Source: an uncultured Gemmatimonadales bacterium
GTDB taxonomy: Bacteria; Gemmatimonadota; Gemmatimonadetes; Longimicrobiales; RSA9
Assembly (NCBI GenBank): GCA_963741945.1
Contig: CAVUKA010000001.1
Coordinates: 32,001-96,000 of the forward strand
Direction of reading: 5' to 3'
Length of the DNA stretch: 64,000 nt
The position numbers and the translations under genes are program-made. Positions 37,584-57,250 of this stretch are shown here, one piece after another. How positions within the stretch are numbered: the stretch's first letter is position 1; each line of letters begins with the position of its first letter. The notes under the pieces were generated by a model. It was not told the DNA's origin. It searched no databases and saw only the letters and a program-made list of their open reading frames with translations.

Positions 37584-38241
37584 CGACCGGCGGCGCCTCC
37601 GGGAGTGCGCTCACGACCATGTCGGCAAGGCGGGCGAGGGCCGCGCTCATGGCGTGCGCCACATCGGCCGCCGAGGAAGAGGCGGTGTCCACTTCGATGT
37701 GTGCATCGCGCGCGAGGAGGCTGCGCTGGGAGGCGTCGTCGACGATGGACCAGCGACCATCCAGGACCACGGTGCCGCCGGGACTGGCGGCGAACCGCTC
37801 CAGGGTGACGACGAGGAGCCGCATGTCCCCCGGCGGATCCGGCTGGCCGGGGAGCGCCACGCTGCCATCGGGGAGGCGGGCGGCCAGGTCGAAGGCGAGC
37901 GTCCGCCGGACCACGACGGCGAGGCCGGCGGGCCAGCGGACGGTGCCATCCACCTCGAGCCTGTTCTCGGCCGTGATCCGCACCAGCGCCGCGCGGTCCA
38001 GCCCGGGGGGCAGGGTGATCCGCCCCACCGCCAGCGGAGCGCTGGTCGCGGCGGGCGCGGCGCTGCGGGGCGAGATGGTGCTGAGGTCGACATAGCGCGT
38101 GGCGGGGCTGGACGCGCACCCGACCATGCCGAACGCGAGGAGAAGCAGGGGAAGACCGCGGGCCGCCGGGTGAGGCCAGCGGGGCGATGAACGTGGGGAA
38201 CGGCGTCGTCGCACGACCGGGGTGTGGAATCGAAGAGTCAC
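37576..38241 (-). CDS. pqiC: PqiC-like ABC auxiliary lipoprotein
   Basis: Lipobox GMVGC; 'ITLPPGLDRAALV', 'RW', 'LDGRWSI'; third gene of pqiAB. Confidence 0.82.
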   Translation of the reverse strand: MTLRFHTPVVRRRRSPRSSPRWPHPAARGLPLLLLAFGMVGCASSPATRYVDLSTISPRSAAPAATSAPLAVGRITLPPGLDRAALVRITAENRLEVDGTVRWPAGLAVVVRRTLAFDLAARLPDGSVALPGQPDPPGDMRLLVVTLERFAASPGGTVVLDGRWSIVDDASQRSLLARDAHIEVDTASSSAADVAHAMSAALARLADMVVSALPEAPPVGG

Positions 38242-39989
38242 GGTCCTGACCTCCCCTGTATCAGCGCTTCGGGGTGACGATCGAGGTAATCGGTGAGGGA
38301 GCGCAGGGAGCGGGCGGCGCGGGTCATCTCGTCGATCAGGTCCTGGAGATTGTGCTGGTCGCGCAGTGAGCCGCCGGAGAGCCCCTGGACCGCGTCGGCC
38401 GTGGAAGCCAGGTCGCTCATGGCCTGTCGGAGGTCGGAGAGCGCCGGCTGGAGCTGGCGGCGGGCGTCGGCGGTGAGCGTATCCGCGTTGGCCATGAGCC
38501 GGTCCAGGTGTTCCAGGGTCTGATTCAGCTCCGGCGATCGGACCAACGTGTCGAGCCCCGCGGTGAGGTTGCGCAGATTGCGCCCGATGGTCCGGATCGG
38601 GAGGGCGGCCACGGCGTCGGCCGCGCGACTGACCGACGACAGCGCGCTCTGGATTCCCCCGCCCGCGATGGCCGGGATCCCTGGCGGCTGCTGCTGCCGG
38701 TCGAGCCTCCGGCCCCGCTCGTCGGTCATCACCAGCGACGCCTGCTCGCCACCGAGCACGAGCCCGGCCTGCGCCAGCTGGGCGCGCATCCCGTGCCGGA
38801 CCAGCTGGTCTACCACGTCATAGAGCGGCCGGGGCGAATCGCCGGGGCCGCGCGGCGCGAGCCCGAACCGTTCCGGATACAGGTCGAGGATCACGGGCGT
38901 GCTGACCACCCCGCGATCCGGCCGCACGCGGAGCTGCACATCCGCCACTTCGCCCACGCGGATCCCGCGCAGTGTCACCGCCGCGCCCGGCTCCAGCCCG
39001 CCGACGGAGCCGGGGAAGTCGGCCGCGAAGCGGACCGGGCGTCCGGCCAGAGGCGAGCGCGCGTCCGTGGCGCTGGCGTAGAGCCGGTACGCGGAATCCC
39101 GCGTGCCCGCAGCGGACCGGGCGGCCCCCGGCTCCGCAGTCGACGCGCCCGCCGCGCCGGGGGACGGCGACCCGGCGGTGTCGGTGAACGTGTCGAACGC
39201 GACACAGCCGTTGAGGAGCCGGGGGATCGGCGGGAAGTGGACGTCCAGTCCGCCCCCGCCGGTGGACACGTCCAGGCCGCTGCAGCGCCAGAAGCGCGAC
39301 TGCGGCTGGACCAGCGTATCGAACGGCGGCCGGACCAGCACATGGAAGCGGACCTCGCCTGCGGACGGCCCCAGGGAGAGACCGAGCACGCGGCCCGCTT
39401 CAAGGCCGTGATAGATGACCTGCGCTCCACGGCCGATCCCGTGGGCGCGCGCGTCCACCAGCGTGACGGTGCGGCCCGGCTCGACATGGGCGTCGGGGGG
39501 CGGTGAAGTCAGACCCGTGAAGTGGTGGGTGGGCTCCCCCGCGCCGGGCTCCATGACCAGGTACGGTCCGGAGAGGAGGCTGGACAGGTCGCCGCTCAGA
39601 AGGCTGGGGCTCTGGATCCAGAAGCGCGTACCCGTGCGCAGCGCTTCCTGCATGCCATCATCCATTGCGAGGTGCATCACCACGCCGTTCAGCGAGTCCC
39701 CCAGCTCCACGGAAGAGACCTGGCCTACCTGCAGCCCGCGGTAGCGGACCGCCGTCGCCCCTTTCCCCGAGATCCCGTGCGCCGTCGGGAAGGTCACGGT
39801 CACGTTCGGGCCGCCCCCGAACACCGCCTTGAACCCCAGGTACCCCGCGACGAGCAGCGCGGCCAGCGGCACCGCCCAGATCCATCCTCGCCAGGACGAC
39901 TGCTGGATGCGCGCCCACGGCGGTCCCGTCTCGTTCTCGGCAGCCTCGCGGTCGGGGGCGTCGCGGTCGGGGGCGTCGCGGTCGGTCAT
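38238..39989 (-). CDS. pqiB: PqiB-like multi-MCE-domain protein
   Basis: WIWAVPL, VRYRGLQVGQV, GTRFWI, LLSGPYL, GLEPGAAVTLRGIRVGEV, C-terminal LRSLTDYLDRHPEALIQG. Confidence 0.9.
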   Translation of the reverse strand: MTDRDAPDRDAPDREAAENETGPPWARIQQSSWRGWIWAVPLAALLVAGYLGFKAVFGGGPNVTVTFPTAHGISGKGATAVRYRGLQVGQVSSVELGDSLNGVVMHLAMDDGMQEALRTGTRFWIQSPSLLSGDLSSLLSGPYLVMEPGAGEPTHHFTGLTSPPPDAHVEPGRTVTLVDARAHGIGRGAQVIYHGLEAGRVLGLSLGPSAGEVRFHVLVRPPFDTLVQPQSRFWRCSGLDVSTGGGGLDVHFPPIPRLLNGCVAFDTFTDTAGSPSPGAAGASTAEPGAARSAAGTRDSAYRLYASATDARSPLAGRPVRFAADFPGSVGGLEPGAAVTLRGIRVGEVADVQLRVRPDRGVVSTPVILDLYPERFGLAPRGPGDSPRPLYDVVDQLVRHGMRAQLAQAGLVLGGEQASLVMTDERGRRLDRQQQPPGIPAIAGGGIQSALSSVSRAADAVAALPIRTIGRNLRNLTAGLDTLVRSPELNQTLEHLDRLMANADTLTADARRQLQPALSDLRQAMSDLASTADAVQGLSGGSLRDQHNLQDLIDEMTRAARSLRSLTDYLDRHPEALIQGRSGP

Positions 39990-41245
39990 GTCGTGCTGCG
40001 GAGAGCCAGCCGTGTCCGGGCGTGTGTGGTGGTGGCGGCGCCGAGCCTTCCTTCCGCGGCATCCCAGAGCAGGCGCGTGTCGAACAGCCGGGCGGCCATC
40101 ATGGTGAACACCACGACCAGCGTGAACGGCACCGCGGCGATGTCGATGTGCACCAGGGCGGCGCCGGGGAAGGAGAGCAGCGGGATCGAGAACGCCTCGA
40201 TGAGCGGGTCGGTGGTGGACCAGCGACCGATGCCGTGGATCGTGCGGTGGATGTGCGTCTGGCGGCGCAGGTTCTCGGGGTGTGGGCTTCGCACGCGGAA
40301 GAGCAGCCAGGTCAGCCCCACCAGCTTCAGGAACGGCACGAGGATGCTGGCGATGATGATGATCACGGCCAGATACCAGAACCCGGCCTGGAACAGCTCT
40401 CGAACCCCGATGATGATCGTCCGATGCTTAACCCCGGTGGGCTGCATGGTGTAGCTCATCGGGAAATAGTACGAGGGGAAATAGAAGATGTAGCCGGCGG
40501 CCACGAGGGCGGCCGTGCGCGTGAGGGCGTTCAACTTCCGGATCCGCAGGCGCCGGCCGCACCGCGGACAGGGTTTCCCTTCCGCGGAGGCGGGGAGCAC
40601 GAGCATGCAGGCATCGCAGCCGAGCGCGTTTCCGTGCTCGGGCGCCTCGCGGTCCGGCTGAATGGCCTCCCAGACAGTGTGGTTAGTCACCACGCGGTTC
40701 AATACCAGGGAGAGCACGCCGGCGCCGGCGAGGCACCAACCGCCCGGCTCCACGTGGGCGGTGAGCTGCTCGGCCGTCCGCATGTAGATGACGAAGCCGG
40801 CCACGATCATGACCTCGGGCATGGCCCAGAGCCGGATGTTGTCGGCGTAGCGGTAGAGCCGCCCGAGCCAGCCGGGCCTCCAGCGCGTGCGTACGGCCGT
40901 GAGCACGAAGGTCAGCAGCGTGGCGCGTGCCACCGGGAGGAACATGACGAAGGCCGCGAGGATGAGGGCCAGCACGGGCCAGCCGTCGCCCCAGACGCCC
41001 ATGATCCCGGAGACGATCCAGGCCTTGTGCGTCCGTCCCAGTGCGGACGCAGACATGACGGGAAAGAGGTTGGCGAGGAGGAGGAGCACGAGCAGGGCCG
41101 CGGACCAGGCCAGACTCAGGGACAGGGTGAGGGACCGGTTGCGATCCAGGATCTGATCGCAGCGGAGGCACCTGGCCTCGGCTCCGGCCTCCACGACCGG
41201 GATACGCTGTATGGCTCCGCAACCCGAACACGCGACCGTCGACAC
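39986..41245 (-). CDS. pqiA: paraquat-inducible protein A (fused two-domain)
   Basis: Two CxxC...CxRC clusters, WAMPEV, ASILVPFLKL, IGRWS. Confidence 0.9.
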   Translation of the reverse strand: MSTVACSGCGAIQRIPVVEAGAEARCLRCDQILDRNRSLTLSLSLAWSAALLVLLLLANLFPVMSASALGRTHKAWIVSGIMGVWGDGWPVLALILAAFVMFLPVARATLLTFVLTAVRTRWRPGWLGRLYRYADNIRLWAMPEVMIVAGFVIYMRTAEQLTAHVEPGGWCLAGAGVLSLVLNRVVTNHTVWEAIQPDREAPEHGNALGCDACMLVLPASAEGKPCPRCGRRLRIRKLNALTRTAALVAAGYIFYFPSYYFPMSYTMQPTGVKHRTIIIGVRELFQAGFWYLAVIIIIASILVPFLKLVGLTWLLFRVRSPHPENLRRQTHIHRTIHGIGRWSTTDPLIEAFSIPLLSFPGAALVHIDIAAVPFTLVVVFTMMAARLFDTRLLWDAAEGRLGAATTTHARTRLALRSTT

Positions 41246-41339
41246 TACCCCGGCTCCCCTCGAACCAGTCCGTCAACCTGCCCGTACAAAGCTTCCGGAG
41301 GCCCGCACTGCAATTTCGGCTCCGGCGTGCCGCGCCGGT

Positions 41340-42347
41340 TCAGGCGGCCGGTTCGTCCTCCGGATGCACGAGGAGCACGGGAAGGCTCGCGGCCCGGATG
41401 ACCTTGTCACTGACGCTGCCCAGGATCAAGCGACGCACGCCGCCCCGGCCGCGCGTGGCCATGGCCACCAGGTCCGCTCCCGCGCTGGCGGCAGCGTCGA
41501 GGATGCCCTCGGCCACGGGTCCCACCCATACGAGCGGCTCCGCCACGGCGACGCCCTGCTCCCGGAGCCGCGCGGAAACGGACTCGAGGTATTCCCCGGC
41601 GGTGCGTCGTGCAGCGTTCACCTGCACCTCCGCCTCTTCCGCCATCTCCGGCATGTACGGCGACGCCACAGGCAGGGTAGGCGCGGTGACGCGGAAGGGA
41701 AGGATCTCGGCCTCCATGACCCGGGCGAGAGCGACGGCTGGAGGCAGGATGGCCTCCGACAGCGGGGAGCCATCGAGTGGCACGAGAAAGCGCCCGATCT
41801 TGGTCGAGCCGGCGGCCGCGACGCTCTGCGCTGCGCCGCCCCCTGCCCCGGCACCCGCCGCCTCCCCGGGGCGGACCAGCAGGATCGGCGTGCTCGACGT
41901 GCGGACCAGGCGATCCGCAACGCTGCCGAGCCACGCACGTTCGATGGGTCCTCTTCCGTGCGTGGACATGACCACGATACCCGGATCCGCTTCCCCGATT
42001 CGACGCGTGAGCTGGGCTTCGGCTGCGCCTTCCAGGACCACCGTGTCGACCTTGTCGATCCCGGCATCGCGAAGCCGCTGCTCGACGCGGTCGAGGTACG
42101 CGGCCCTGTCGCGGAGCAGCGATTCGCGGAGCGCGGCGGTCGAGCCGGTCGTGTCGGCGGGGATCTCCATGCCAATGTCCCAGGCGACGGGTGGCGTGGC
42201 TATGCCTCCGGCGGCCAGCGGAGCGGCGTCGACCACGGTGACGAGCTCCAGCGCGCCGTCGCAGGACCGCGCAATGGCCGTGGCCAGCGGGAGCGCGGCT
42301 TCCGCGAACCCGGATCCATCCAGTGGCACCAGAACGCGCTCGAACAT
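41340..42347 (-). CDS. universal stress protein (two USP domains)
   Basis: VLVPLDGS twice; MSTHGRG..LGSVADRLVR and MATRGRG..LGSVSDKVIR; RBS GGAGG. Confidence 0.93.
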   Translation of the reverse strand: MFERVLVPLDGSGFAEAALPLATAIARSCDGALELVTVVDAAPLAAGGIATPPVAWDIGMEIPADTTGSTAALRESLLRDRAAYLDRVEQRLRDAGIDKVDTVVLEGAAEAQLTRRIGEADPGIVVMSTHGRGPIERAWLGSVADRLVRTSSTPILLVRPGEAAGAGAGGGAAQSVAAAGSTKIGRFLVPLDGSPLSEAILPPAVALARVMEAEILPFRVTAPTLPVASPYMPEMAEEAEVQVNAARRTAGEYLESVSARLREQGVAVAEPLVWVGPVAEGILDAAASAGADLVAMATRGRGGVRRLILGSVSDKVIRAASLPVLLVHPEDEPAA

Positions 42348-42395
42348 GCATCCTCCCTTTGTTGCGCCGGAGACCCGCCTCGGAGACGGACGGGC

Positions 42396-42412: not shown

Positions 42413-43201
42413 TCAGGCCGTGCCGTTCTCCCGGTCCGTCGGCGGTCCCGGAGGTCGCGGAGCTCCCGGGTCCGCACAGGCGACCCGGCCGATCTCGGGG
42501 CCCCACACGAGGGTTCGTACCTGGCCGGCGGCCTCGCTCCACGCGCCGTGCCAGCGGGCGCCGCCGGGGACCTGGACGATGAAGTCGTCGGCCCCGATCT
42601 CTTCGACCACCACGGCGCGGGTATCGAGCCGAAGCCCCGTTCGCAGCGCCTTCAGGGCGGCTTCCTTCGCCGCCCACGTGAGGTTGGCGAAAAGCGGCCG
42701 CTCGCCCGGCGCCGCCGCGCGCACGCGGGCCGCTTCCGCGGGCGTGAAATAGTCGTCGATGAAGCGCTCGCTTCGCGGCTCGATGGTCTCGAGGTCCACG
42801 CCCAGCTCGCCGCCCCCGAGCCGGGCAGCGGCCAACCCGTTTCCGCCGCTGTGGCTGATGGACACCGCCATGGCAATGAACTCGTCGGCAGCGACGATAC
42901 GGGGTTCCGGAGCGCCGTCGTCCGCCGGGAGCACCTCCACCATGTCGGGCCCGACCTCCCGCCCCGCCGCGGACAGCGCCAGGGCCACGGCGCGCTTCGC
43001 CGCCCAGCGCCCGATCCTCCAGTCGGCTCGCCGTCCGGGCACGCGGTACGCCATGAGCCTGGCCAGCTCCGCATCGGTCAGCCAGTCGCTCGCTTCCGGC
43101 ACCTCCGAGGCGGCCACCAGCACTTCGTGCACGCGCGGCGCGGGGTGCCCGCGCCGGCGCTGGTGGTGGGCGGTGCGCGGCCGGGGCGGCAAAGGTGTCA
43201 T
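42413..43201 (-). CDS. 4'-phosphopantetheinyl transferase (Sfp type)
   Basis: GR.AAK, SISHSG, LGVDLE, WAAKEAALKA; ATGA overlap with the PKS stop. Confidence 0.9.
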   Translation of the reverse strand: MTPLPPRPRTAHHQRRRGHPAPRVHEVLVAASEVPEASDWLTDAELARLMAYRVPGRRADWRIGRWAAKRAVALALSAAGREVGPDMVEVLPADDGAPEPRIVAADEFIAMAVSISHSGGNGLAAARLGGGELGVDLETIEPRSERFIDDYFTPAEAARVRAAAPGERPLFANLTWAAKEAALKALRTGLRLDTRAVVVEEIGADDFIVQVPGGARWHGAWSEAAGQVRTLVWGPEIGRVACADPGAPRPPGPPTDRENGTA

Positions 43202-46200
43202 GCCTTCTGTCGGAGCTCCGGGAACGGGCGCCCTTCCATGGTGGTGGGGAGGGCGGCGGTGCGGTAGCCACGCACCGAAGCCAGCACGGTGCCATCCTCC
43301 GCCACCACGTCCACGTCGTAGCCGGCTTCGGCATCGCCGCCGGCGAGCAGCGCCATGGAGCCTCCGGCGTCGCCCCGGGCCGGGTCGATCAGGTCGACGC
43401 GTTCCACGCTGTACGGCAGCCCCATGCGGGCCGCGTCCGCGATCTCGGCCAGGCCGGCGGTCTGGAACGCCAGCTCGACGAGGCGAGGCGCCGTGAGCAG
43501 CGTCCGCTCCGCGGGGACGTGGTTCGGCGGCAGCGCTTCGGCGAGCCGCCCGGCCAGGAGCGCGCCGGAGCGCCACGCCCGGCCCAGGACCCGGTACGCT
43601 GGGCCATGGAAATAGACATCGTAGATGGCGTCCGCGCCGATCCCGGGCCCGCTCCCGGGAAGATCGCGGCGGTGCGGAGCGTCGGGCGCGCTGGCGGTGA
43701 GCCTCACACGCGCCGTGAAATGCGTGGTCACTTCGGGCTCGGGGCGGCCGTGCAGCGTGCGGGCGCCGAGCAGCGCGCACTCCGCCACCACCTCGTCGCC
43801 ATCCTCGCCGTAGCGCACCCGGACGCTCACGGTGCGCGGCTCATCGCGGTAGAACTTGAACGGCGCGAGGAACGTGACGTCCTCCACGGCCGCGACCCGC
43901 AGCGCCGGGAACGGCAGCGCGGCGGCCTCCGCCATGGCTTCCATGCCCATGACGCCGGGGAGCACCGGGGTGCCGTCGATCCGGTGGTCGTCCAGGAACG
44001 GCTGGGCTTTCGGATCGAGCCGGGTTTCGACCAGGAGCCCGTCGTTCAGGCCGAGCTCCACCACCCGCTCGGCGACGACACCACCGGACCCGTCCGCGTC
44101 CGCCCGTACGCCGCCGCCGGGCGCCCGCGCATCGAGCATGGCGCCCAGCGCGCCGGCGATCACGACTTCGCCGCGGGTGCCGGCGGACAGCTCGCGCCGG
44201 ACGACGGGAACCCCCGCCGCGGGCTCGAGCATGTCAATGCCCGCGGCCTTCAGGATGGTCGGGATCGAGCCGCGGGTGGCCATGCCGATGCCTCCCCACG
44301 CGGTCCAGTCGATGGCTATGCCGCGGGAGGCCGACCTCCGACTGCGGAACGATGAGACCGCCTTGCAGAGCAGGTCGTTGGCCGCGCTGTAGTCGGCCTG
44401 GCCCGCGTTGCCGAAGCGGCCGGCGATGGAGCTGAAGACGACGGCGGCGCCCAGCGGGGCGTCGCCGAGCCCCGCCAGCAGGTTGAACCAGCCGTCGGTC
44501 TTCACGTCGAACACGAGGTCGAACTCTTCCGGCGACTTCTCCGGGATCGACCGGCTGACTTCGAGTCCCGCCGCGTGCACCAGAACGTCCAGCCTGCCCC
44601 GGGCGGCCACCACCTCGCGCATCACGGCCGCCACGGCATCGGCGTCGCGCAGGTCGACGGCGCGCCAGTGCGCGGTGCCACCGGCGGCCTCCACGGCGCG
44701 GATGGCGGCGAGTGCCGCGGCCGCCCGCTCGAGGCGGGCCAGCTGCTTCTCCACCAGCGCCGGCGTCGCCCGCTCGCCGCTGTCCTGGAGCCGCGCGAAG
44801 ATCTCCCGCTTCAGCCCGTCCCGATCGGAAGCGAGCCGCGCCAGGTCCGGGTCGGCCGGGTCGGGCTCCGGCGTCAGGTCCAGGAGCCAGAACTCGCCGC
44901 CCGTCGGGGCCAGGTCCGCGAGAATGGCCGACGTGATGCTCCCCGCCGCGCCCGTGACCACCCAGGCGGCGTCGGCGCCCGGCAGATCGTGCCCCGGCTC
45001 CACGGAACGCGTGTCGAGGCCGACCGTCCAGCGCCTGCCTCCGGCGTGGCCGACCTCCACCACGCCCGGGTCCCGCAGGGTCTCCTCGATGAGCAGGTCC
45101 GCCACTTCGGCCGTCCTCCGGCCCGGGGCGAAGTCCACCGCCTTCACGAGCGCGGCCGGCCGCTCGCGGGCGAACGACTTCACGAGCCCGGTGACGGCGC
45201 CACCGAGGACATCGGCGGCCCCTTCGGCGTCGTACCCGTGGCGGCCGCCGAGACGCGTGGCCGAAACCACGAACCCGCCCGCCGCGCCCACGTCGTCATA
45301 GAGCGAGCGGAGCAGTGCGTAGAGCGCTTTCACGCGGAGCTGGAGCGCCTCCCGCCGTTGCCGGGGCTCGAGCAGCGCGGCGTCGTCGAGGATGTCGAGC
45401 GCCGGAAGCCAGTACACCCCCCGGATCGGGCCTTCCGCCCGCCACCCAGCCAGCCGCTTCGCCAGCGCATCCGGGCTCGCCGCGTCCTCGAGCACCAGCG
45501 GCGCGACGCCGCGTTTCTCCAGCCGGCCCACGAGCGCTTTCGCGACCCCGCCGGTGTCGGGCATCACGACCACGCGGGCTCCCTTGCCCAGCGAGACGCC
45601 CGTTTCCCGGAAGAACGCGATGGGCGGACGCAGTCGCGGGACCGGAACGCGGCGCGGAACCGCCTGCGCGGCCGCCATGTCACTCGCCATGTCACCCGCC
45701 ATGTCACCCGCCATGGCGCGCGGGGCCACGTCGAGGCCGGGGGTCGGCGGCGTGTCCGGAGGCGCGGACCCGGGCTGCGGGGCTCCACCGGCCGCGGCGA
45801 TCGATGGTGCTTCGCCGGCGGCGGGCGCGAGGTCCGGTCGCTTCTCGTACACGAACTCGATGGCCCGCTTCAGCGTGGGGTAGTCCCGGAGCGCCAGCTC
45901 CTCGTCCCGCTCGATGCCGTACTCCTCGCGGATCGCCGCGAACATCTCCGCCTGCTTCACGGTGTCGATGCCCAGGTCCGCTTCCAGGTCCAGGTCCAGC
46001 TCCAGCATGTCCGGCGGGTAGCCGGTCTGCTCCGCCACGATCCCAAGGACGCGCGCGCGCACGGGGTCGCCGGGCGCTGCGCCCGGAGCGGGGGCTGCCG
46101 CGGCCGGGGCGGGTGGAGGGGAGGTGGTCGCGCCGGCGGCGGGTGCGAGGTCCGGGCGCTTCTCGTACACGAACTCGATGGCCCGCTTCAGCGTGGGGTA

Positions 46201-49200
46201 GTCCCGCAACGCCAGCTCCTCGTCCCGCTCGATGGCGTACTCCTCGCGGATCGCCGCGAACATCTCCGCCTGCTTCACGGTGTCGATGCCCAGGTCCGCT
46301 TCCAGGTCCAGGTCCAGCTCCAGCATGTCCGGCGGGTAGCCGGTCTGCTCCGCCACGATCCCCAGCACGCGCTCCCGGATCGGATCCGCGACCGCCACGG
46401 CCGCGGTGCCCGGGACAGCAGTCGTGTCCGGGGCCAGGCCCGCGCCGGGCTGCGGGCGCGCACCCGGGGCCGCGGCCGGCGCGCTCGGCACGGACGCCGT
46501 CGCCGGCAGGGGCATTGCCCCGGGGGCGGCCGGTGTCCCGGCCGGGGCGGGGGCGCCGTTGCGCAGCCGGAGCACGCGCTTCACCACTTCCAGCTCGCCC
46601 GGCCGCCCGCCAGCGATGTCCGCCAGCCACCGATCCCAGGCCGCGCGGTCGGCGATGCGGTGGTGGAATCCCACGCTGCCGGGCGCCCGGCGCGCGCCGT
46701 CGGGCGGCGGGGTCCAACGCAGGAGGCTCATGGCGATCTGCGAGCCGAAACCGGCGCCCAGCCGCAGCGCGTAGGTGACCGGCCGAGCGCCGCCGCGGGA
46801 CAGGTTGAGCTCGCCGAGCTCGGGATCGACGTCGCGGAAATTGGCCACCGGGGGGATCACGCCCGTCTCGAGCATGCGCACGGCCAGAGCGTCCTCGATG
46901 CCCACAGCCATCGGGTGGCCCGTGTGACCCTTGGTATTGGCGACGATGATGCGGTCCACCGCGTCGCCGAAGACGCTCCGCAGCGCCACGACTTCCGCCG
47001 ACGCGCTCCCGCCGCGCGCAGGCGTGTACGTCTCGTGGGAGACGAACACGGTGTCGCCGGCGATCTGGCGGCGGTCGATCCCCCATTCTCGCTCGGCATC
47101 GGAAACCAGGCGCTCCATCACGGCGGCGATGTGCTGCACGTCCAGGCGGCTGCCATGGAACGCGCTGTTCGCCACCGCGGTGCCGAGGATCTCACAGATC
47201 GGCGACAGCCCCCGCTCCGCGGCGGCGTCCAGCGCCTCCACCACGAGCGCCGCGCCACCCATCCCGATGATGAGACCATGACGGCGCCGATCAAACGGGA
47301 GCGCAGCGTCCTCCAGGCGCTCGTCGGTGGCCGCGGCTCCGGAGGCCAGGAACCCGCTGCCGAACCACGGAAGGAGGGCGTCGGTGGTGATGTCGTCCGC
47401 GGACAGGACAATGACGCGACGGCAGCGCCCGGCGGCGATCCAGTCCCGGGCGAGCGCCGTGGCCTGGGTGCCGCTGGCGCACGCTGCGTTGGTGCCGATG
47501 TTGGGGCCGCGCGCAACGATGTACTCGGCGAACTGGGCGTGGCCCATGCTGAGCACCTGGAACAGGAAGCGGCGGTCGAAGCGGAAGGGGTTGGCTGCCA
47601 GCTCGGTCTCCAGGGCGACGATCCGGGCGTCCACCTCCTCGATGGCAGACGCTTCCCCTCCCGCCGGCAGCTTCGCTCGCAGGGATCGGAGCTCCTCCAG
47701 CCGCTCGCGCCGGGCACGGTCCTCGTGGTAGCCCTCGATCACGCGCGCGAAGGAATCGTAGCCGGGGAAAGCGGACGCGAAGATGACACCGGTGTCGTCC
47801 CGCATCGATTCCGGGAGCGCCCAGCCGTCCGGGAGCTTCGATCCGGTGGTCGTGGTCTTGTGCCGCAGCACGAGCGGAATTCCGGCATCGCGCAGCGCGT
47901 CGAGCCCCGCGGCGATGGCGAGGCGGGTGACCCGGTCCAATGCGCCGAGCCGATCCTCCGGGAAGCCGTACTCCTCCACCAGGTCCACTGCCCCGCCGCG
48001 GCCAGCGAGCTTGATCACGTCCGCAGGGTCGTCGATGGTCTCGAAGCGCGCGTCCCCGTTCGACCCTTTCACCAGCCGGGTGATCCGGTGCCCGGCCATG
48101 GCTTCACGCAGCCCCTGCGGCACTGCGCCGATCAGCGCCTCTCCCGCGAGGATCCGCTCCAGGTTCCGCTCATCGAACACCCACTCCCCACCGGGGAGCC
48201 CGAGCGCCGCGCCCGTGATCCCCACCCGCACCGGGCGCGCGGCCCGGCCACCCGCCCAGGTCTCGAAGCTGCGCTCGAGGAAGTCGGAGAACATCCGGCC
48301 CAGCGCCAGGTGCCGGTCCTCGTCCCGTGTGGCGCCGGCGATGCGGGAACGCGTGGCTGACAGCGACGGGTCGGGCGCGGGGGTCGGCCAGGGCGTGTCG
48401 GGCGTGTCGGCCGTATCGCGCATGTGGGGCGCGGACAGCGCGGCGGCGGCGGGAGTCGCGGGCTGTGCCAGGCTGTGGGCGCGCGGCGATGGCGCGAGCG
48501 TCCGGGCCGCCCCGTGACCGGCGGCGTAGAGGCCGCAGAGCGCGCGGTTGAACGAGACGACGTCACCCGTCCTGGGGTGATTCGTGAAGAGGGTGGTCAC
48601 GTCCTCGCGGCCGCCGAGAACGTCTTCGGCGAAGCCGTAGAGGACGCGCTTCGGGCCCATCTCGATGAACACGCGGGCGCCGGCGTCGTACAGCGTCTCC
48701 AGCCCCCTGACGAACTGGACGGGGGAGCCGACCTGCCGGGCGAGGATGTCGCGCATGCGCTCCACCACGTCGCCCTCCGCCGGGTAGAACTGGCCATCCA
48801 CGTTGGCGACGATGGGGCGGTCGGGCGGCCGGAGCGACAGCGAGCTCAGCACCTGAACGAGCGGCTCCGAGGCCTGGGCCACGATCTCCGTGTGGAACGC
48901 GTGGCTGACGGGGAGCGGCTGCGCGCGCATGCCGGCTCCCCGCAGTGCTTCCATGGCCGCGGTCACAGCCGCGGTCGCGCCGCCGATGACGCACTCCTTC
49001 GTGCTGTTCAGGTTGGCAATGACCACATAGCCGTCCACGCCTCCGATCACGTCACGCACGCGCTCCACGTCGCCGAACACGGCAGCCATGAGCCCGTTGT
49101 CCTCCATGGCGAGGTGCGTCATGGCGTCCCCGCGCGCGGAGACGGCCCTGAGCGCGTCGGCGAACGACATGCCCGCGGCCGCGACGAGGGCGCCATACTC

Positions 49201-51270
49201 GCCGAGGCTGTGCCCCATGACCATGTCGGGCTCGATGCCGTACGCGACCATCAGCCGGGCCAGCGACGTGTCCACGGCCAGCATCGCGGGCTGGGTGATG
49301 GCCGTCTGCTTCAGCGCCTCCTCTGCGGCCGCCAGTGCAGTACCGTCCCCGGCGTCCACGAAGATCCGGGACGTGAGCGTGCTCCCGATGAGCGGCGCCA
49401 TGACCCCGTCCGCCTCGTCGAACGTGTCCGCCACCACCGGCTCCGTGTCGCGCAGCCCCCGCAGCATGTTGGCGTACTGGGAGCCCTGCCCCGTGAACAG
49501 GAACGCGACTCTCCCGGGCGCGCCCCGGCCCAGGAACACGCCCTTGTTCCGGAGCGCGCGCCAGCGGCCGGCATCGCCCGTGTCGAGCGCGGCGAGGGTC
49601 CTGGTGGCCAGGTCCGCCAGCTCGGCGGCGTCGCCGTAGTCGATGGCGAGGCGGACCGGCGCGTCGAGGTCGGCGCGGGCGGGCGGTGCGGGCGGCGGCG
49701 CGTCGCCGGCCTCCGCGGCCGCCTTCACCGCTTCCAGGCGACGCGCGATGTCCGCTTCCGACGCCCCGCCGATCACGAGCGCGCCCCGAAGGGGAGCCTT
49801 GAGCGGCATGGCCCCGGGTACGTGCGCCCGCGGCGCGGGTGAGGGCACGTACTCCTCCAGCACCACGTGGAAGTTCGTCCCGCCGAAGCCGAACGCGCTC
49901 ACGCCCGCCCTGCGCGGGCCGCCATCGGAGCGATGCGGCCAGTCGCGCATCTCGGCCACCACGGCCATCGTGGCGCGGCCGAAATCGATGCCGGGGTTCG
50001 GGCGCGCGAAGTTGATGCTGGCGGGGACAGCGCCATGGTGGAGCGAGAGGGCGGCCTTGAGCATCCCAACGGCGCCCGCAGCCCCCTTCAGGTGCCCGAT
50101 GTTCGACTTCACCGAGCCGAGCATGAGGGCGCCCGGCGCCAGCGCGGCCCCGGCGAACACCTCATCCATGCTCGCGACTTCCACGACGTCGCCCACGCGC
50201 GTCGACGTGCCGTGCCCCTCGATCAGGTCGCCCGCCGCGGGCACCAGGCCGGCGTTGGCCCACGCGCGCTCCACCGCCAGCTGCTGGCCGATGGGGTTCG
50301 GCGCCGTGATCCCCTTCCCTCGCCCGTCGCTGGAGCCACCCACCCCGCGGATGACGGCGTAGACGCGGTCGCCATCTCGCTCGGCGTCGGCCAGCCGCTT
50401 CAGCAGGAAGATCACCGCACCCTCGCCCATCACGAAGCCATCGGCCCCCTCCGCGTACGGCCGGGAGCCGGTGGCGCTGAGCGCGCCGATCTTGCAGAAC
50501 TTCACGAATGCGGACGGGCTCATGTTCGCGTCCGCGCCGCCCGCCAGGACCGCGTCGAAATCGCCATTCTCGAGACCGTCGATGGCGGCATAGAGGGCGG
50601 CCATGGCGGAGGCGCACGCGGCGTCCGTGACGAAATTGGGGCCGCGGAAGTCGTACAGCGCGGCAATGCGGCCGGCGGTGATGTTGGACAGCTCCCCCGG
50701 CATCGTGTCCTCGGTGATATCCGGGATCCGCCGGTTCACACCGGCCCGGAGCTCTTCGAGGACCGCGGCGCGCACGTCCTCCGGCAGGGCGCGGTAGGCG
50801 GGCGCCGCCCGGAGCTCCTCGGCCACTTCGGGGAAGAGGATGCGGGCGCCCGTCAGGAGGTGGTAGTCGCCACCCATCGCGTTGCCGAGAATCACGGCCG
50901 TGCGGTCGCCATCGAGCGGGCGATGGGGGTGTCCATAGTCGAGCAGCGCCTGCCTCGCCGCGGCGATGGCGTACTTCTGCGTGGGATCCATGGACGCCGC
51001 CACTTTCGGCGGGATCGGCATGCGCCACCCGAGCGGGTTCCACTCGTAGTCGGCGACCCACCCGCCGATCTTCGAGTACGTCCGGTCCGGCGCGCGCGGG
51101 TCCGGGTCGAAGTAGAGGTCCGCGTTCCAGCGCTCGCGGGGAACGTCGCGGATGCTGTTGCGTCCTTCCTTCAGGTTCTTCCAGAACGCGGCCACGTCGG
51201 GCGCGTCCGGGAGGACCGCCCCGACTCCCACGATGGCCACCGACCTGCTGCGCGCGCTGCTGTCCATCAT
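43198..51270 (-). CDS. iterative type I PKS/FAS, PfaA-like: KS-AT-KS-ACP-ACP-KR-DH
   Basis: KS1 DAACAS/HGTST/KSNIGH; AT GQGSQ/GHSLG/HAFH; KS2 NAACAS/SHETYT/TKGHTGH; ACP LGIDTVKQAE x2; KR TGAAGSI/QADYSAAN; DH DHRIDGTPVLPG. Confidence 0.93.
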   Translation of the reverse strand: MMDSSARSRSVAIVGVGAVLPDAPDVAAFWKNLKEGRNSIRDVPRERWNADLYFDPDPRAPDRTYSKIGGWVADYEWNPLGWRMPIPPKVAASMDPTQKYAIAAARQALLDYGHPHRPLDGDRTAVILGNAMGGDYHLLTGARILFPEVAEELRAAPAYRALPEDVRAAVLEELRAGVNRRIPDITEDTMPGELSNITAGRIAALYDFRGPNFVTDAACASAMAALYAAIDGLENGDFDAVLAGGADANMSPSAFVKFCKIGALSATGSRPYAEGADGFVMGEGAVIFLLKRLADAERDGDRVYAVIRGVGGSSDGRGKGITAPNPIGQQLAVERAWANAGLVPAAGDLIEGHGTSTRVGDVVEVASMDEVFAGAALAPGALMLGSVKSNIGHLKGAAGAVGMLKAALSLHHGAVPASINFARPNPGIDFGRATMAVVAEMRDWPHRSDGGPRRAGVSAFGFGGTNFHVVLEEYVPSPAPRAHVPGAMPLKAPLRGALVIGGASEADIARRLEAVKAAAEAGDAPPPAPPARADLDAPVRLAIDYGDAAELADLATRTLAALDTGDAGRWRALRNKGVFLGRGAPGRVAFLFTGQGSQYANMLRGLRDTEPVVADTFDEADGVMAPLIGSTLTSRIFVDAGDGTALAAAEEALKQTAITQPAMLAVDTSLARLMVAYGIEPDMVMGHSLGEYGALVAAAGMSFADALRAVSARGDAMTHLAMEDNGLMAAVFGDVERVRDVIGGVDGYVVIANLNSTKECVIGGATAAVTAAMEALRGAGMRAQPLPVSHAFHTEIVAQASEPLVQVLSSLSLRPPDRPIVANVDGQFYPAEGDVVERMRDILARQVGSPVQFVRGLETLYDAGARVFIEMGPKRVLYGFAEDVLGGREDVTTLFTNHPRTGDVVSFNRALCGLYAAGHGAARTLAPSPRAHSLAQPATPAAAALSAPHMRDTADTPDTPWPTPAPDPSLSATRSRIAGATRDEDRHLALGRMFSDFLERSFETWAGGRAARPVRVGITGAALGLPGGEWVFDERNLERILAGEALIGAVPQGLREAMAGHRITRLVKGSNGDARFETIDDPADVIKLAGRGGAVDLVEEYGFPEDRLGALDRVTRLAIAAGLDALRDAGIPLVLRHKTTTTGSKLPDGWALPESMRDDTGVIFASAFPGYDSFARVIEGYHEDRARRERLEELRSLRAKLPAGGEASAIEEVDARIVALETELAANPFRFDRRFLFQVLSMGHAQFAEYIVARGPNIGTNAACASGTQATALARDWIAAGRCRRVIVLSADDITTDALLPWFGSGFLASGAAATDERLEDAALPFDRRRHGLIIGMGGAALVVEALDAAAERGLSPICEILGTAVANSAFHGSRLDVQHIAAVMERLVSDAEREWGIDRRQIAGDTVFVSHETYTPARGGSASAEVVALRSVFGDAVDRIIVANTKGHTGHPMAVGIEDALAVRMLETGVIPPVANFRDVDPELGELNLSRGGARPVTYALRLGAGFGSQIAMSLLRWTPPPDGARRAPGSVGFHHRIADRAAWDRWLADIAGGRPGELEVVKRVLRLRNGAPAPAGTPAAPGAMPLPATASVPSAPAAAPGARPQPGAGLAPDTTAVPGTAAVAVADPIRERVLGIVAEQTGYPPDMLELDLDLEADLGIDTVKQAEMFAAIREEYAIERDEELALRDYPTLKRAIEFVYEKRPDLAPAAGATTSPPPAPAAAAPAPGAAPGDPVRARVLGIVAEQTGYPPDMLELDLDLEADLGIDTVKQAEMFAAIREEYGIERDEELALRDYPTLKRAIEFVYEKRPDLAPAAGEAPSIAAAGGAPQPGSAPPDTPPTPGLDVAPRAMAGDMAGDMASDMAAAQAVPRRVPVPRLRPPIAFFRETGVSLGKGARVVVMPDTGGVAKALVGRLEKRGVAPLVLEDAASPDALAKRLAGWRAEGPIRGVYWLPALDILDDAALLEPRQRREALQLRVKALYALLRSLYDDVGAAGGFVVSATRLGGRHGYDAEGAADVLGGAVTGLVKSFARERPAALVKAVDFAPGRRTAEVADLLIEETLRDPGVVEVGHAGGRRWTVGLDTRSVEPGHDLPGADAAWVVTGAAGSITSAILADLAPTGGEFWLLDLTPEPDPADPDLARLASDRDGLKREIFARLQDSGERATPALVEKQLARLERAAAALAAIRAVEAAGGTAHWRAVDLRDADAVAAVMREVVAARGRLDVLVHAAGLEVSRSIPEKSPEEFDLVFDVKTDGWFNLLAGLGDAPLGAAVVFSSIAGRFGNAGQADYSAANDLLCKAVSSFRSRRSASRGIAIDWTAWGGIGMATRGSIPTILKAAGIDMLEPAAGVPVVRRELSAGTRGEVVIAGALGAMLDARAPGGGVRADADGSGGVVAERVVELGLNDGLLVETRLDPKAQPFLDDHRIDGTPVLPGVMGMEAMAEAAALPFPALRVAAVEDVTFLAPFKFYRDEPRTVSVRVRYGEDGDEVVAECALLGARTLHGRPEPEVTTHFTARVRLTASAPDAPHRRDLPGSGPGIGADAIYDVYFHGPAYRVLGRAWRSGALLAGRLAEALPPNHVPAERTLLTAPRLVELAFQTAGLAEIADAARMGLPYSVERVDLIDPARGDAGGSMALLAGGDAEAGYDVDVVAEDGTVLASVRGYRTAALPTTMEGRPFPELRQKA
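45813..46372. repeat. near-identical direct repeat of the ACP-coding unit (45813-46054 and 46131-46372; period 318 bp)
   Basis: Direct comparison shows only a handful of substitutions over ~242 bp. Confidence 0.92.
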
Positions 51271-52955
51271 GCGGCTCCGTTCGTGTCACGGCCGTACAGT
51301 GCGTCGGCCACCTCGTCCATGTCCGCCACGAGTCCCGCCTGCGCCGCGTGGATCGGCCCGACGCGGAGCGACTGCTGGAAGCCCGCGAGATCCGGGAGCG
51401 GCACGCCATCGGCGCCCACGGCCCAGCGGATTCCCTCCGCCACGACCGCCGCCGCGGCCTCCCGCGCGTAGACACGGCTGGCCGCCGTGAGGGCGTCCGG
51501 TGCCAGGCGACGATCGGCTTTGGCCGGCAGCTCGCCCGCCGCGGCCCGCGCGGCCCGGCGAGTCAGCGCCGCCGCCGCTTCGACGCGGGCGATGAGGTCG
51601 CCGAACCGCAACAGGAGGTGCTGACTCCGCGTGAGGCGCTGGAGACGGGCGCGCTCCAGCAGCTCCGCCAGGGCGTGGGCGGCCAGAGCGACCGTGTCGG
51701 CCCCCACGCCGGGCGCCACGGCGGACACCTGCTCCAGCTTCACCGCCTCATCGTGGTAGTGCTGCCCGCGCGTCTTCAGATGCTGCTGCCAGCGGTCCCG
51801 TGCAATGGTCATCTCCATGATCTCCGACGTGCCCTCGTAGATCGTGGTGATGCGTACGTCGCGGCGGATCTTCTCCACCTCGTACTCCCGCACGTAGCCG
51901 TAGCCGCCCAGCGCCTGCATCGCCGCGTCCGCCGCCGCGTTCCCCGCTTCCGTGGCGATGTACTTGGCAATGGCGCCCTCCGTGTTCAGCGCGCCTTCGC
52001 CCGCGTCGATCCGCACCGCCGTCTCCTCGATGCACGCCCGCCCGGCTTCCAGACGGCAGGCGTGCGGCACGATCAGCTTGTGCGTGTAGCCCTGTTTCTC
52101 GGCAAGGGGACCGCCCGCCTGGATGCGCGTCCTCGAGTACGCGATGGCCCGATCCAGCGCCGCCCAGCCGGCGCCCAGGCCAAACGCGGCCACCATGAGC
52201 CGCGTGTAGCCGAACACCAGCTGCGCCTGTACGAGCCCCTGCCCCTCCACGCCGCCCACCAGGTCGGACGCCGGGACATACACGTCGTCGAAGGAAAGCG
52301 CGGCCGTATTGCTCGCCCGGATCCCGTGCTTGTCCTCCGGCTTCCCGTGGTCGAGCCCGTCCACCCCCTTCTCCAGCACGAACCACGTCGGCCCGCCCGG
52401 GGCAAGGGCGAGAACGCTGTAGAGGTCGGCGAACCCGCCGTTGCTGATCCACATCTTGGCGCCGTTGATGCGATAGCCGACCACCGCGCCGCCCTCCTCC
52501 ACCCGCTTCGCCACCGTCCGGAGCGCGCCCAGATCGCTTCCCGCTTCCGGCTCCGTGGCGCCGTACGCCATCAGCAATCCCTCTTCCGCGATCCGCCCCA
52601 GCCAGCGCGCCTTCTGCTCTTCCGTCCCACCCCAGAGGATCGGATCACTGCCCAGGAACGTGGCCAGAACCCCCGTCGCCACGCCGAGATCGATCGCCGA
52701 CAGCAGCTCGCACACGCGGTACACGTCGAACGCGCCCCCATCCATCCCGCCGTATGCCTCGGGGATGAAGAGGAGCTGCACGCCCAGCTCCCCGCACATG
52801 GCGCGGATCGTCTCCTCCGGGAACTCGTGGCTGGCGTCCAGCTCGAGCAGCCGCTCCCTGGGCAGGTGCTCGGCCGCGAAATCGCGGATCGAGGCGAGGA
52901 TCAGCTCCAGCGTCTCCCGGTCCAGACCGGCGTTCGGCGTCGCAACGATGGTCAT
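51267..52955 (-). CDS. acyl-CoA dehydrogenase family protein with C-terminal extension
   Basis: ATEPEAGSD, NGAKMWISNG, KHGIRAS.T, QALGGYGY, IYEGTSEI; ATGA overlap with the PKS start. Confidence 0.92.
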   Translation of the reverse strand: MTIVATPNAGLDRETLELILASIRDFAAEHLPRERLLELDASHEFPEETIRAMCGELGVQLLFIPEAYGGMDGGAFDVYRVCELLSAIDLGVATGVLATFLGSDPILWGGTEEQKARWLGRIAEEGLLMAYGATEPEAGSDLGALRTVAKRVEEGGAVVGYRINGAKMWISNGGFADLYSVLALAPGGPTWFVLEKGVDGLDHGKPEDKHGIRASNTAALSFDDVYVPASDLVGGVEGQGLVQAQLVFGYTRLMVAAFGLGAGWAALDRAIAYSRTRIQAGGPLAEKQGYTHKLIVPHACRLEAGRACIEETAVRIDAGEGALNTEGAIAKYIATEAGNAAADAAMQALGGYGYVREYEVEKIRRDVRITTIYEGTSEIMEMTIARDRWQQHLKTRGQHYHDEAVKLEQVSAVAPGVGADTVALAAHALAELLERARLQRLTRSQHLLLRFGDLIARVEAAAALTRRAARAAAGELPAKADRRLAPDALTAASRVYAREAAAAVVAEGIRWAVGADGVPLPDLAGFQQSLRVGPIHAAQAGLVADMDEVADALYGRDTNGAA

Positions 52956-55717: not shown

Positions 55718-57055
55718 TCAGTAGGCGTCGAAGCGCGGATTGACGATGGCGTTGTGGATGGAGCCGAACGTGTAGCTGAGGCCGACGGACAGGCGGTAGG
55801 TGAAGTCCGTCTGGAGCTCGGTGAGGCGGAGGAGGATCTCCTCGTTGGAAGCGCCCTCGGCGGGGAGTGAGATCTGGTCGTGGACGCGGCTGTAGCGGCC
55901 GCGGACATCGAGGGACAGCCCGCGCAGCAGGTTCACTTCGACATCACCGCGCCAGGTGATGCGGTACTTGGCGGCATCGGCCTGCGCCTGCGCCTCCGGC
56001 GTGGGCGCGTCGGGTGTCCAGTGGAGGATCTGCCGTCCCTCCACGGAGGAGTAGATGCTGCCCCAGGGCTGTCGCAGGGAGAGGGCGACGTTGAGCGTGT
56101 GGTCGAGGAGGCGGTCCCGCGTCTTGCCGTACAGCGTGACTTCGTCGTACGTGCGGTAGGCGGGGCCGAGGGTGTAGAGGATGGTGAGCTGGCGGCGGGT
56201 GGACTCGTCGTAGGGGAAGACGTCATACTCGATCCCGGGCGCCACGCGAGCGGCGAGGGAGATGTTGGAGTAGGTGGACGAGCTGAGGGAGCCGACCAGG
56301 CCTGCGGACCAGTGGGCGCCGAGCGCCTTGACGTTCATCCCGTCGAGGCGGTAGGAGCGCTGCACGGCGCGGGTGGTGGATCCGTCCTCGAGGGTGTAGC
56401 GGCTGTCGTCGTAATTCGACTCCAGGCCGAGCTCGGTCTTCCACTCGGGGGTGACGCGGTTCACGTCGACGCTCCCCTCGAGGGAGGTGCTCTTCTGGAG
56501 CGACTCGCCCTCGAGGCTGGTGCCGGCGCGCAGCCGGAAGACCCAGGCGTTCCAGGGATCGACCGCGACACCCGTGGCGGCGCCCGCGTGGATGTCTCCG
56601 GTGTAGGCCACGTCGAGGCCGGGTGCGAGAGCCGTACGGGCGACGAAGGGGACGAGCCCGATGCGGAGCCAGCGAGCGAAGCGCTGGCGATTCTCGTCGT
56701 CCGTGGTCGACGGGGGCGAGGAGAAGTGCAGGGTGTCCGCCCGCCCGAGGAACCCGTTCCGACCGATGAGCCTCATGGTGTAGGCGCGCCCGCCGCCGCC
56801 GGTCTCGTCGGTGGTGACGAGGACGTGGACGGCGGCATCCTGCCGGTTCCGGACCCATTCGATCCAGTCCATCTCGGTGCGCAGGTAGTCGAAGTCGCAC
56901 CCGGGCACCCGGTCCTGGCAGTCGAGATAGACGCGGAGACCGGCGGGCTCCGGCTGCTGCGCGGCGGCGCCGCGCGGCGCGAGACCGGCCCCGATGACGA
57001 GGAGGAGAGCAATGCCCAGGCGGCCCGGGCCGCCACGCGCGCCGATTCGATCCAT
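55718..57055 (-). CDS. hypothetical exported protein, probable outer-membrane beta-barrel
   Basis: Signal peptide ending AAAQ; N-terminal VYLDC..C domain; alternating amphipathic strands rich in Y/S/T/G; ends LSYTFGSIHNAIVNPRF. Confidence 0.7.
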   Translation of the reverse strand: MDRIGARGGPGRLGIALLLVIGAGLAPRGAAAQQPEPAGLRVYLDCQDRVPGCDFDYLRTEMDWIEWVRNRQDAAVHVLVTTDETGGGGRAYTMRLIGRNGFLGRADTLHFSSPPSTTDDENRQRFARWLRIGLVPFVARTALAPGLDVAYTGDIHAGAATGVAVDPWNAWVFRLRAGTSLEGESLQKSTSLEGSVDVNRVTPEWKTELGLESNYDDSRYTLEDGSTTRAVQRSYRLDGMNVKALGAHWSAGLVGSLSSSTYSNISLAARVAPGIEYDVFPYDESTRRQLTILYTLGPAYRTYDEVTLYGKTRDRLLDHTLNVALSLRQPWGSIYSSVEGRQILHWTPDAPTPEAQAQADAAKYRITWRGDVEVNLLRGLSLDVRGRYSRVHDQISLPAEGASNEEILLRLTELQTDFTYRLSVGLSYTFGSIHNAIVNPRFDAY

Positions 57056-57250
57056 GAACTCCGCTGGGTACGTATCCCTTGGGTCGGGGCTCGCAAGATG
57101 AACCCCGGGCGCTCCGCCCGCAAACACACCGGGCCCGGGCCCGGACCGTCATGCCCCGCCCGGCTTCTGCCCACCGCTTTCCGGGGCCGGGCGCAGGCCT
57201 TATCCTCCGATGTTCAACCGAACACTCATCCCGAATCCAGGAACCCGCCC

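Follow-up and report, generated by a model that had tools for sequence, protein, structure and literature searches.

The window analysed here, a stretch of 64,000 nucleotides from an uncultured Gemmatimonadales bacterium (GenBank assembly GCA_963741945.1, contig CAVUKA010000001.1), encodes on its minus strand a megasynthase of 2690 residues (43198–51270), whose two acyl carrier protein (ACP) domains both present threonine (Thr) at the position where carrier proteins bear the 4'-phosphopantetheine (Ppant) arm on serine (Ser). The carrier-motif Ser is treated as a universal rule in fatty-acid, polyketide and non-ribosomal peptide biosynthesis, and domain predictors depend on it, as do textbooks; to our knowledge, all characterized carrier proteins have Ser as the cofactor-bearing residue. 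The synthase belongs to an operon of the 'Type R secondary lipid synthase' class, which has been catalogued and is uncharacterized. Sequence comparison identified the Thr as a real, family-wide departure from the textbook invariant within this class. The Thr is probably the site of Ppant attachment, served by the Sfp-type 4'-phosphopantetheinyl transferase (PPTase) whose gene is coupled to that of the synthase.

Both ACP domains read DLGIDTVKQAEMF, and the motif context of Thr1664 in the first and Thr1770 in the second was alike (...LEADLGIDTVKQAEMFAAIRE...). On the minus strand, the first domain occupied 46141–46404 and the second 45823–46086, with the Thr codons at 46279–46281 and 45961–45963, exactly where the original prediction had placed them. 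Each 88-residue domain contained three Thr, no cysteine (Cys) and no Ser, so the claim that Ser was absent was also borne out. The two copies were identical at 243 of 264 bases. Pfam recognized PP-binding domains in two stretches (PF00550, 60 bits against a gathering threshold of 20.8; best stretch residues 1740–1806, in the second domain); where this family has its conserved Ser, within a (D/H)S(L/I) motif, Thr was found in both. There were six PP-binding matches in the genome to which the window belongs, including these two. The other four, comprising AcpP (contig C8) and three carriers of non-ribosomal peptide synthetase or polyketide synthase (PKS) type (contig C1, 922–930 kb), all had Ser and lay elsewhere, leaving the cluster without a stand-alone ACP, as had been noted. 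The same genome encodes three PPTases alongside its three groups of carriers, and Thr is confined to the Type R ACPs.

The position of the Thr was established by alignment to solved structures. A profile built from 30 Thr-type domains, searched against Protein Data Bank (PDB) sequences, placed the Thr column on the Ppant Ser of solved carriers, among them the PigH ACPs (DLGVDSI and DLGIDSV) and several AcpPs (DLGADSL). The same sequences yielded no match at E up to 1 when searched by phmmer with the ACP didomain as a single sequence. An AlphaFold2 (AF2) model of the ACP domain (predicted local distance difference test, pLDDT, 87.8) had the Thr, residue 42 of the domain, as the first residue of helix II. 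When this model was compared with the PDB by Foldseek, the best matches were all ACPs, and the top ranks had target-normalized template modelling (TM) scores of approximately 0.8–0.87. The Thr therefore sits exactly at the Ppant-Ser position of the ACP fold.

Conservation of the Thr was examined in two sets of homologues, both picked without regard to the ACP motif. Set A came from a search with the second ketosynthase-like region (KS2; residues 980–1520), which gave 3742 matches at E up to 0.001; the best 120 of these were used, being a database twin of the query and 119 homologues. Including the query, Thr was present in 382 of 383 ACP motifs and the remaining motif had methionine, while five truncated homologues were without the ACP region. 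Among 379 full ACP domains, the site was Thr in 378, methionine in one and Ser in none, and no further Ser or Cys was conserved anywhere in the domain. Set B was obtained from species-representative genomes by scanning for a pair of peptide patterns, one from either ketosynthase domain and neither lying within an ACP. This confirmed at least 571 relatives, of which 80 loci were kept; these spanned approximately ten phyla (the loci came from Acidobacteriota, Gemmatimonadota, Actinomycetota, Calditrichota, Bacteroidota, Myxococcota, Chloroflexota, Binatia, KSB1 and Woeseiaceae). Tandem arrays in these loci contained from one to seven ACPs. All 257 motifs had Thr and never Ser (four truncated loci were without the motif). 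The Thr codon itself varied (ACG 112, ACC 111, ACT 22, ACA 12), and 40 of 76 loci used more than one Thr codon among their own ACPs. Since the codon drifts, and since Ser lies a single base change from Thr codons and was absent from all 257 motifs, it is Thr itself that has been under selection and fixed across phyla.

Conservation of the ACP motif in homologues, suggested as a check in the original prediction, was thus borne out, and the refuting condition named there, that close homologues would all have Ser, clearly failed. The same counts bear on the idea that Thr was a strain-specific mutation or assembly error, spread by duplication in a dead gene. The close similarity of the window's paired ACPs at the DNA level would suit such an origin; however, Thr occurred throughout homologues from some ten phyla, the open reading frame (ORF) is intact and its catalytic residues are invariant. 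This explanation is refuted and has next to no probability; the Thr is neither a chance substitution nor specific to the strain. Two irregular cases were seen: one protein (P0097) has methionine at the site in the first of its four ACPs, and in another (P0145) a final ACP-like domain has alanine at the site.

The PPTase gene (42413–43201, minus strand; 262 aa, PF01648) begins in an ATGA overlap, its ATG sharing bases with the TGA stop codon of the synthase; the translational coupling reported in the original prediction is therefore real. Among 61 loci of set B in which the 3' end of the synthase was complete, a Type R PPTase lay within 10 kb downstream in 57, either next to the synthase or separated from it by a fused acetyl-CoA carboxylase of 1863 aa. 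Three of the four loci without one end at a contig edge, and the genome of the fourth encodes the PPTase elsewhere (E = 9e-77). At the level of whole genomes, Thr-type ACPs were found in just two of 151 genomes sampled from the window's own phylum (G000 and G024), and the PPTase subfamily was found in the same two, scoring 236 and 230 bits where the next best score was 76 bits. Likewise, the same eight of 201 sampled Acidobacteriota (the phylum of locus L015) carried both, with PPTase scores of at least 249 bits and a next best of 99.5. Scores for the PPTase were cleanly bimodal across the sampled genomes. The co-occurrence that was suggested as a check was accordingly strict: in 352 genomes, 10 had both Thr-type ACPs and the PPTase, none had just one and 342 had neither. 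In 11 genomes from these two samples, weaker-scoring ACP arrays were present; these were all Ser-type (DLGIDSIKRVEIL and similar) and occurred without a Type R PPTase.

Thirty-five downstream PPTases were aligned, leaving out two with internal stops (those of L039 and L089). Mean identity was 37%, and the GxDxE and W-S-x-K-E-x-x-K motifs were invariant, as were D136, E138, E180 and K184. Alignment of the profile to 1QR0 and 4MRT showed that equivalents of Sfp residues H90, D107, E109, E151 and K155, which are concerned with magnesium and coenzyme A (CoA) binding and with catalysis, were conserved. The AF2 model of the PPTase (pLDDT 88.9) most closely matched human AASDHPPT (2CG5), Sfp (4MRT) and PptAb/PptT, with target-normalized TM of 0.64–0.71; hence, the enzyme is Sfp-type, with a two-domain pseudo-dimer fold and a normal catalytic core. 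A hidden Markov model (HMM) of the 35 sequences gave 233.7 bits for the in-cluster enzyme, 46.4 for the other Sfp-type PPTase of the same genome and 17.3 for AcpS, by which measure the Type R PPTases form a distinct subfamily. One residue, Glu141, was invariant in this subfamily where Sfp has Lys112; the position is occupied by Gly or Ala in two Ser-associated PPTases, and by Asp in the genome's other Sfp-type enzyme. Given so few comparators, Glu141 as a signature of Thr acceptance is a lead only. The score of a complex predicted from PPTase, ACP, CoA and magnesium (0.68) was given no weight in either direction, since swapping out the PPTase in a control still gave 0.58. The PPTase of the window additionally has an Arg/Pro-rich N-terminal extension covering its first 22 residues or so, of low pLDDT, which most relatives do not have; in another in-cluster Sfp-type PPTase an N-terminus of this kind is reported to be crucial (PMC9813960).

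Ser-bearing relatives were found when the ACP profile was run with HMMER against 1.84 billion representative proteins, giving 6975 matches at E up to 0.001. Among the best 150 of these, Thr-type ACPs occurred in several megasynthase layouts. Representatives of at least 2000 aa numbered 57, of which 42 were Thr-type (39 with KS2) and 15 Ser-type (one with KS2). The protein P0220, in which ketosynthase (KS), acyltransferase (AT) and KS2 domains are followed by five ACPs, a ketoreductase (KR) and a dehydratase (DH), had Ser at position 42 in all five (...TGYP...LEADLGIDSVK...). In a tree of the KS-AT region from 51 proteins, P0220 was placed deep within the Thr clade (Shimodaira–Hasegawa-like approximate likelihood ratio support 99–100), and the tree required at least three switches between Ser and Thr. 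An approximately unbiased (AU) test rejected a grouping of the 32 Thr rows without P0220 (delta lnL 153.7, p-AU = 0.0002), a group that was named after the tree had been seen. The ACPs of P0220 were clearly derived from a Thr-type domain, and this very residue has thus switched between Ser and Thr inside a single enzyme family. Such interchange at the same residue is expected if both serve as attachment point. The claim that PfaA ACPs read LGIDS also held.

The metagenome scan for the locus of P0220 returned just a relative with 26% identity. In a 534-aa fragment (P0203), the first ACP was Ser-type and the next two were Thr-type. Two Acidobacteriota loci (L107 and L109, on G186:C4 and G340:C1) encoded, in this order, a large AT-KS-KS-KR-DH protein, an ordinary PPTase that scored approximately 50 bits against the Type R HMM, and a separate protein of two to three tandem Ser-type ACPs (DLGIDSVKLGEVF). 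These systems were considered as close sisters of the Type R synthases and rejected, because their architecture differs in having the ACPs on a separate protein.

P0220 also bears on the possibility that Ppant is attached to another residue and that Thr42 is structural only. The residues that would be concerned, Thr21 (369 Thr and 10 Ser among 379 domains) and Thr71 (379 of 379), are conserved too; yet every solved ACP that was aligned has its site at the start of helix II, corresponding to Thr42, and it is at position 42 that P0220 has its Ser. Attachment elsewhere in the domain was accordingly considered very improbable.

The evidence is best explained if the two domains in the window are working acyl carriers of an iterative, PfaA-like Type R synthase of lipids or polyketides. 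The 4'-phosphopantetheine arm of CoA would be attached to the hydroxyl of Thr instead of Ser, and it would be installed by the Sfp-type PPTase encoded immediately downstream, a member of a subfamily found only alongside Thr-type ACPs. The resulting holo-ACPs would serve the synthase's own KS, AT, KS2, KR and DH domains, as in polyunsaturated fatty acid (PUFA) synthases, and probably also the flavoenzyme of the acyl-CoA dehydrogenase (ACAD) family encoded upstream. We infer that Ppant is esterified to Thr, that the coupled PPTase does this and that generic PPTases do not. A broader claim was put forward tentatively, as quite possible: that O-phosphopantetheinyl-threonine is a natural and widespread modification made by a Thr-adapted clade of Sfp-type enzymes, that these form with their carriers an orthogonal pair ignored by AcpS and generic Sfp-type enzymes, and that Ser is selected against. 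As speculation, Thr may have been kept as its phosphodiester resists ACP phosphodiesterase or beta-elimination, or as insulation from other PPTases.

Alternatively, the Thr might carry a group other than Ppant, either through a direct O-acyl (oxoester) tether or as a phospho-linked group from a donor other than CoA. The strict preference for Thr over Ser, for which simple Ppant attachment gives no obvious reason, could be read in this way, as could invariant residues specific to the PPTase subfamily, such as Glu at the position of Sfp Lys112. However, every CoA-binding, magnesium-binding and catalytic residue of Sfp is conserved, a revertant to Ser exists within the clade, and the synthase has KS, AT, KR and DH domains of standard type. 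Such domains act on thioesters. A non-Ppant group was judged improbable.

Several considerations weigh against Ppant attachment to Thr. Enzymes of the ACAD family, to which the operon partner belongs, classically use CoA thioesters and not ACP-bound ones. We know of no documented Ppant-threonine, nor of such an entry in modification catalogues. The literature found, coverage of which left out most subscription journals, held no report of Thr-linked phosphopantetheine, of the motif string or of a characterized Type R synthase. Alignment and comparison with Sfp showed ordinary catalytic motifs in the Type R PPTase and revealed no clear structural feature suited to a secondary alcohol. The co-occurrence counts were drawn from related, non-independent genomes and carry no test statistic. 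Finally, the S36T mutant of Escherichia coli ACP reportedly cannot receive 4'-phosphopantetheine and is non-functional (PMC3340395); hence, the canonical machinery rejects Thr.

The mutant, the ACAD-family partner and the silence of the literature would also suit the view that these ACP-like domains are never phosphopantetheinylated and act as scaffolds or docking elements, while the synthase works on CoA thioesters or on the housekeeping AcpP acting in trans, and the PPTase has some other substrate. Against this, the PPTase subfamily is restricted to genomes with Thr-type ACPs, is nearly always in the same operon and has no other carrier nearby. If the residue were non-reactive, Thr should not have persisted (in 257 of 257 motifs of one set and 382 of 383 of the other) as the codon drifted; the nested homologue P0220 has Ser there in all five copies, and copy number ranges from one to seven, as it does for working tandem ACPs. 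This view was considered unlikely, if the least improbable of the alternatives. Of the two possibilities attached to the original prediction, then, loading of Thr by a dedicated PPTase was favoured, through the co-occurrence, the alignment with the Ppant Ser and the nested Ser homologue, while non-catalytic ACPs, with CoA thioesters or a trans ACP, seemed the less likely.

Comparison with described systems placed the operon among the Type R clusters of Shulse and Allen (2011, PLoS One 6:e20146; PMC3098273). There, Type R is described as a pfaA homologue with the layout KS-MAT-CLF-ACP(3-6)-KR (MAT, malonyl acyltransferase; CLF, chain length factor) and a downstream PPTase, reported in Koribacter, Solibacter, Elusimicrobium and Roseiflexus and spread over unrelated phyla; in some clusters an acetyl-CoA carboxylase gene stands between the pfaA homologue and the PPTase, and the product is given as unknown. 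The synthase in the window matches this layout as KS-AT-KS2-ACPx2-KR-DH, and its PPTase has DGAP and SISHS, fitting the P1a (x(G/D)xP) and P1b' (hShxH) motifs that the same pages assign to Type R PPTases, which have no P0 motif. There were two differences from that account (PMC3098273): it gives three to six ACPs, where the window has two and the relatives collected here have one to seven, and it calls the second KS a CLF, where an invariant active-site Cys was found in the present alignment. Neither threonine nor serine is named in the text of PMC3098273, which thus does not describe the Thr. The same source states that PUFA synthases multiply their working ACPs, a habit which the tandem arrays of one to seven Thr-type ACPs match.

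PfaA itself (TIGR02813) was the best NCBIfam match of the synthase. With 855.7 bits against a curated cut-off of 1010.1, the protein did not qualify as PfaA on this score. The two share the KS-AT, tandem ACP and KR order and a near-identical ACP context (DLGID-x-[IV]K); however, PfaA ACPs have Ser (DLGIDSIKRVEIL) where those in the window have Thr, and the synthase has an additional KS2, a C-terminal DH and an ACAD partner. Sfp with its peptidyl carrier protein, and other pairs of group II PPTase and carrier (PDB 4MRT, 1QR0, 2CG5 and PptT/PptAb), have the same two-domain fold and catalytic residues as the PPTase in the window. These enzymes act on Ser, whereas the only carriers of the operon have Thr, and the Type R PPTases stand apart as a separate subfamily in which Glu invariably takes the place of Lys112 of Sfp. 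The closest precedent for the carrier is E. coli AcpP S36T, which likewise has Thr at the Ppant position; there, it is reportedly unmodifiable (PMC3340395), while here it is the selected state of a whole family.

The Thr-type ACPs depart from the rule of the carrier Ser at scale, in at least 571 relatives confirmed in species-representative genomes and beside a private clade of PPTases. Together, the carriers and this clade point to an undescribed mode of cofactor attachment. If Thr is indeed loaded, this would be a protein modification not seen before, made by a PPTase of novel specificity, and would supply a ready orthogonal pair of tag and enzyme for protein labelling and pathway engineering; it would also explain possible failure of such synthases in heterologous hosts provided with Sfp only. 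Should loading not occur, a megasynthase of very common type would be running without tethered thioesters, which is equally unexpected.

The remaining domains of the synthase, all on the minus strand, were delimited from its translation and Pfam matches. The first ketosynthase, KS1 (residues 9–480, 49831–51246; PF00109/PF02801/PF16197), has Cys219, His353 and His393; the acyltransferase (residues 590–885, 48616–49503; PF00698) has GHSLGE at G686–E691; KS2 (approximately residues 990–1520, 46711–48303) is a second ketoacyl-synt stretch that keeps Cys1264, His1412 and His1452; the ketoreductase core (residues 2181–2326, 44293–44730) matched PF08659; and the PKS-type dehydratase (residues 2404–2675, 43246–44061) matched PF21089 and PF14765. 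In an alignment of 20 sequences, the Cys/His/His residues of both ketosynthases, GHSLGE and the catalytic residues of KR and DH were invariant columns, and the catalytic domains other than the ACPs were therefore intact, as had been stated. The triad of KS2 sits in an unusual SHETYTPARGG motif instead of the usual HGTGT; KS2 may be an active second ketosynthase.

The synthase is preceded by a gene of the ACAD family (51267–52955, minus strand; 562 aa, Pfam Acyl-CoA_dh_N/M/1), and an ATGA overlap joins the stop of this gene to the start of the synthase, so that all three genes of the operon are linked in this manner. An ACAD homologue was found upstream of the synthase in 79 of 80 related loci. 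Approximately 170 residues of the protein, outside the ACAD domains, matched nothing in Pfam. As an enoyl reductase domain is missing from the synthase, the flavoenzyme may fill the enoyl reductase step or be a desaturase acting on the ACP-bound chain. The fused acetyl-CoA carboxylase, of eukaryote style (BC-BCCP-central-CT), was present between synthase and PPTase in approximately 43 of 80 loci (e.g., L010:18273–23864). The genome of the window is without this gene and has just two biotin-carboxylase matches, elsewhere.

The occurrence of the operon was patchy, with two carriers among the 151 genomes sampled from the window's phylum and eight among the 201 Acidobacteriota, and the synthase has 58–80% identity to homologues in other phyla; together, these observations suggest horizontal spread. 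This giant lipid-building enzyme with Thr-type ACPs is present in many soil bacteria. The genes around the operon look unrelated to it: when flanking ORFs were compared with Pfam, two on the ACAD side and three on the PPTase side, they encoded holin-like, DUF3618, USP, PqiA and MlaD-domain proteins; beside a PfaA, pfaB, pfaC and pfaD would be expected. The tandem-USP protein, PqiA and the MlaD-domain protein occupy 38238–42380 on the minus strand, while a Tricorn-like protease of 1564 aa (with PD40 repeats, Tricorn C1/PDZ and S41) is encoded at 55880–60574 on the plus strand.

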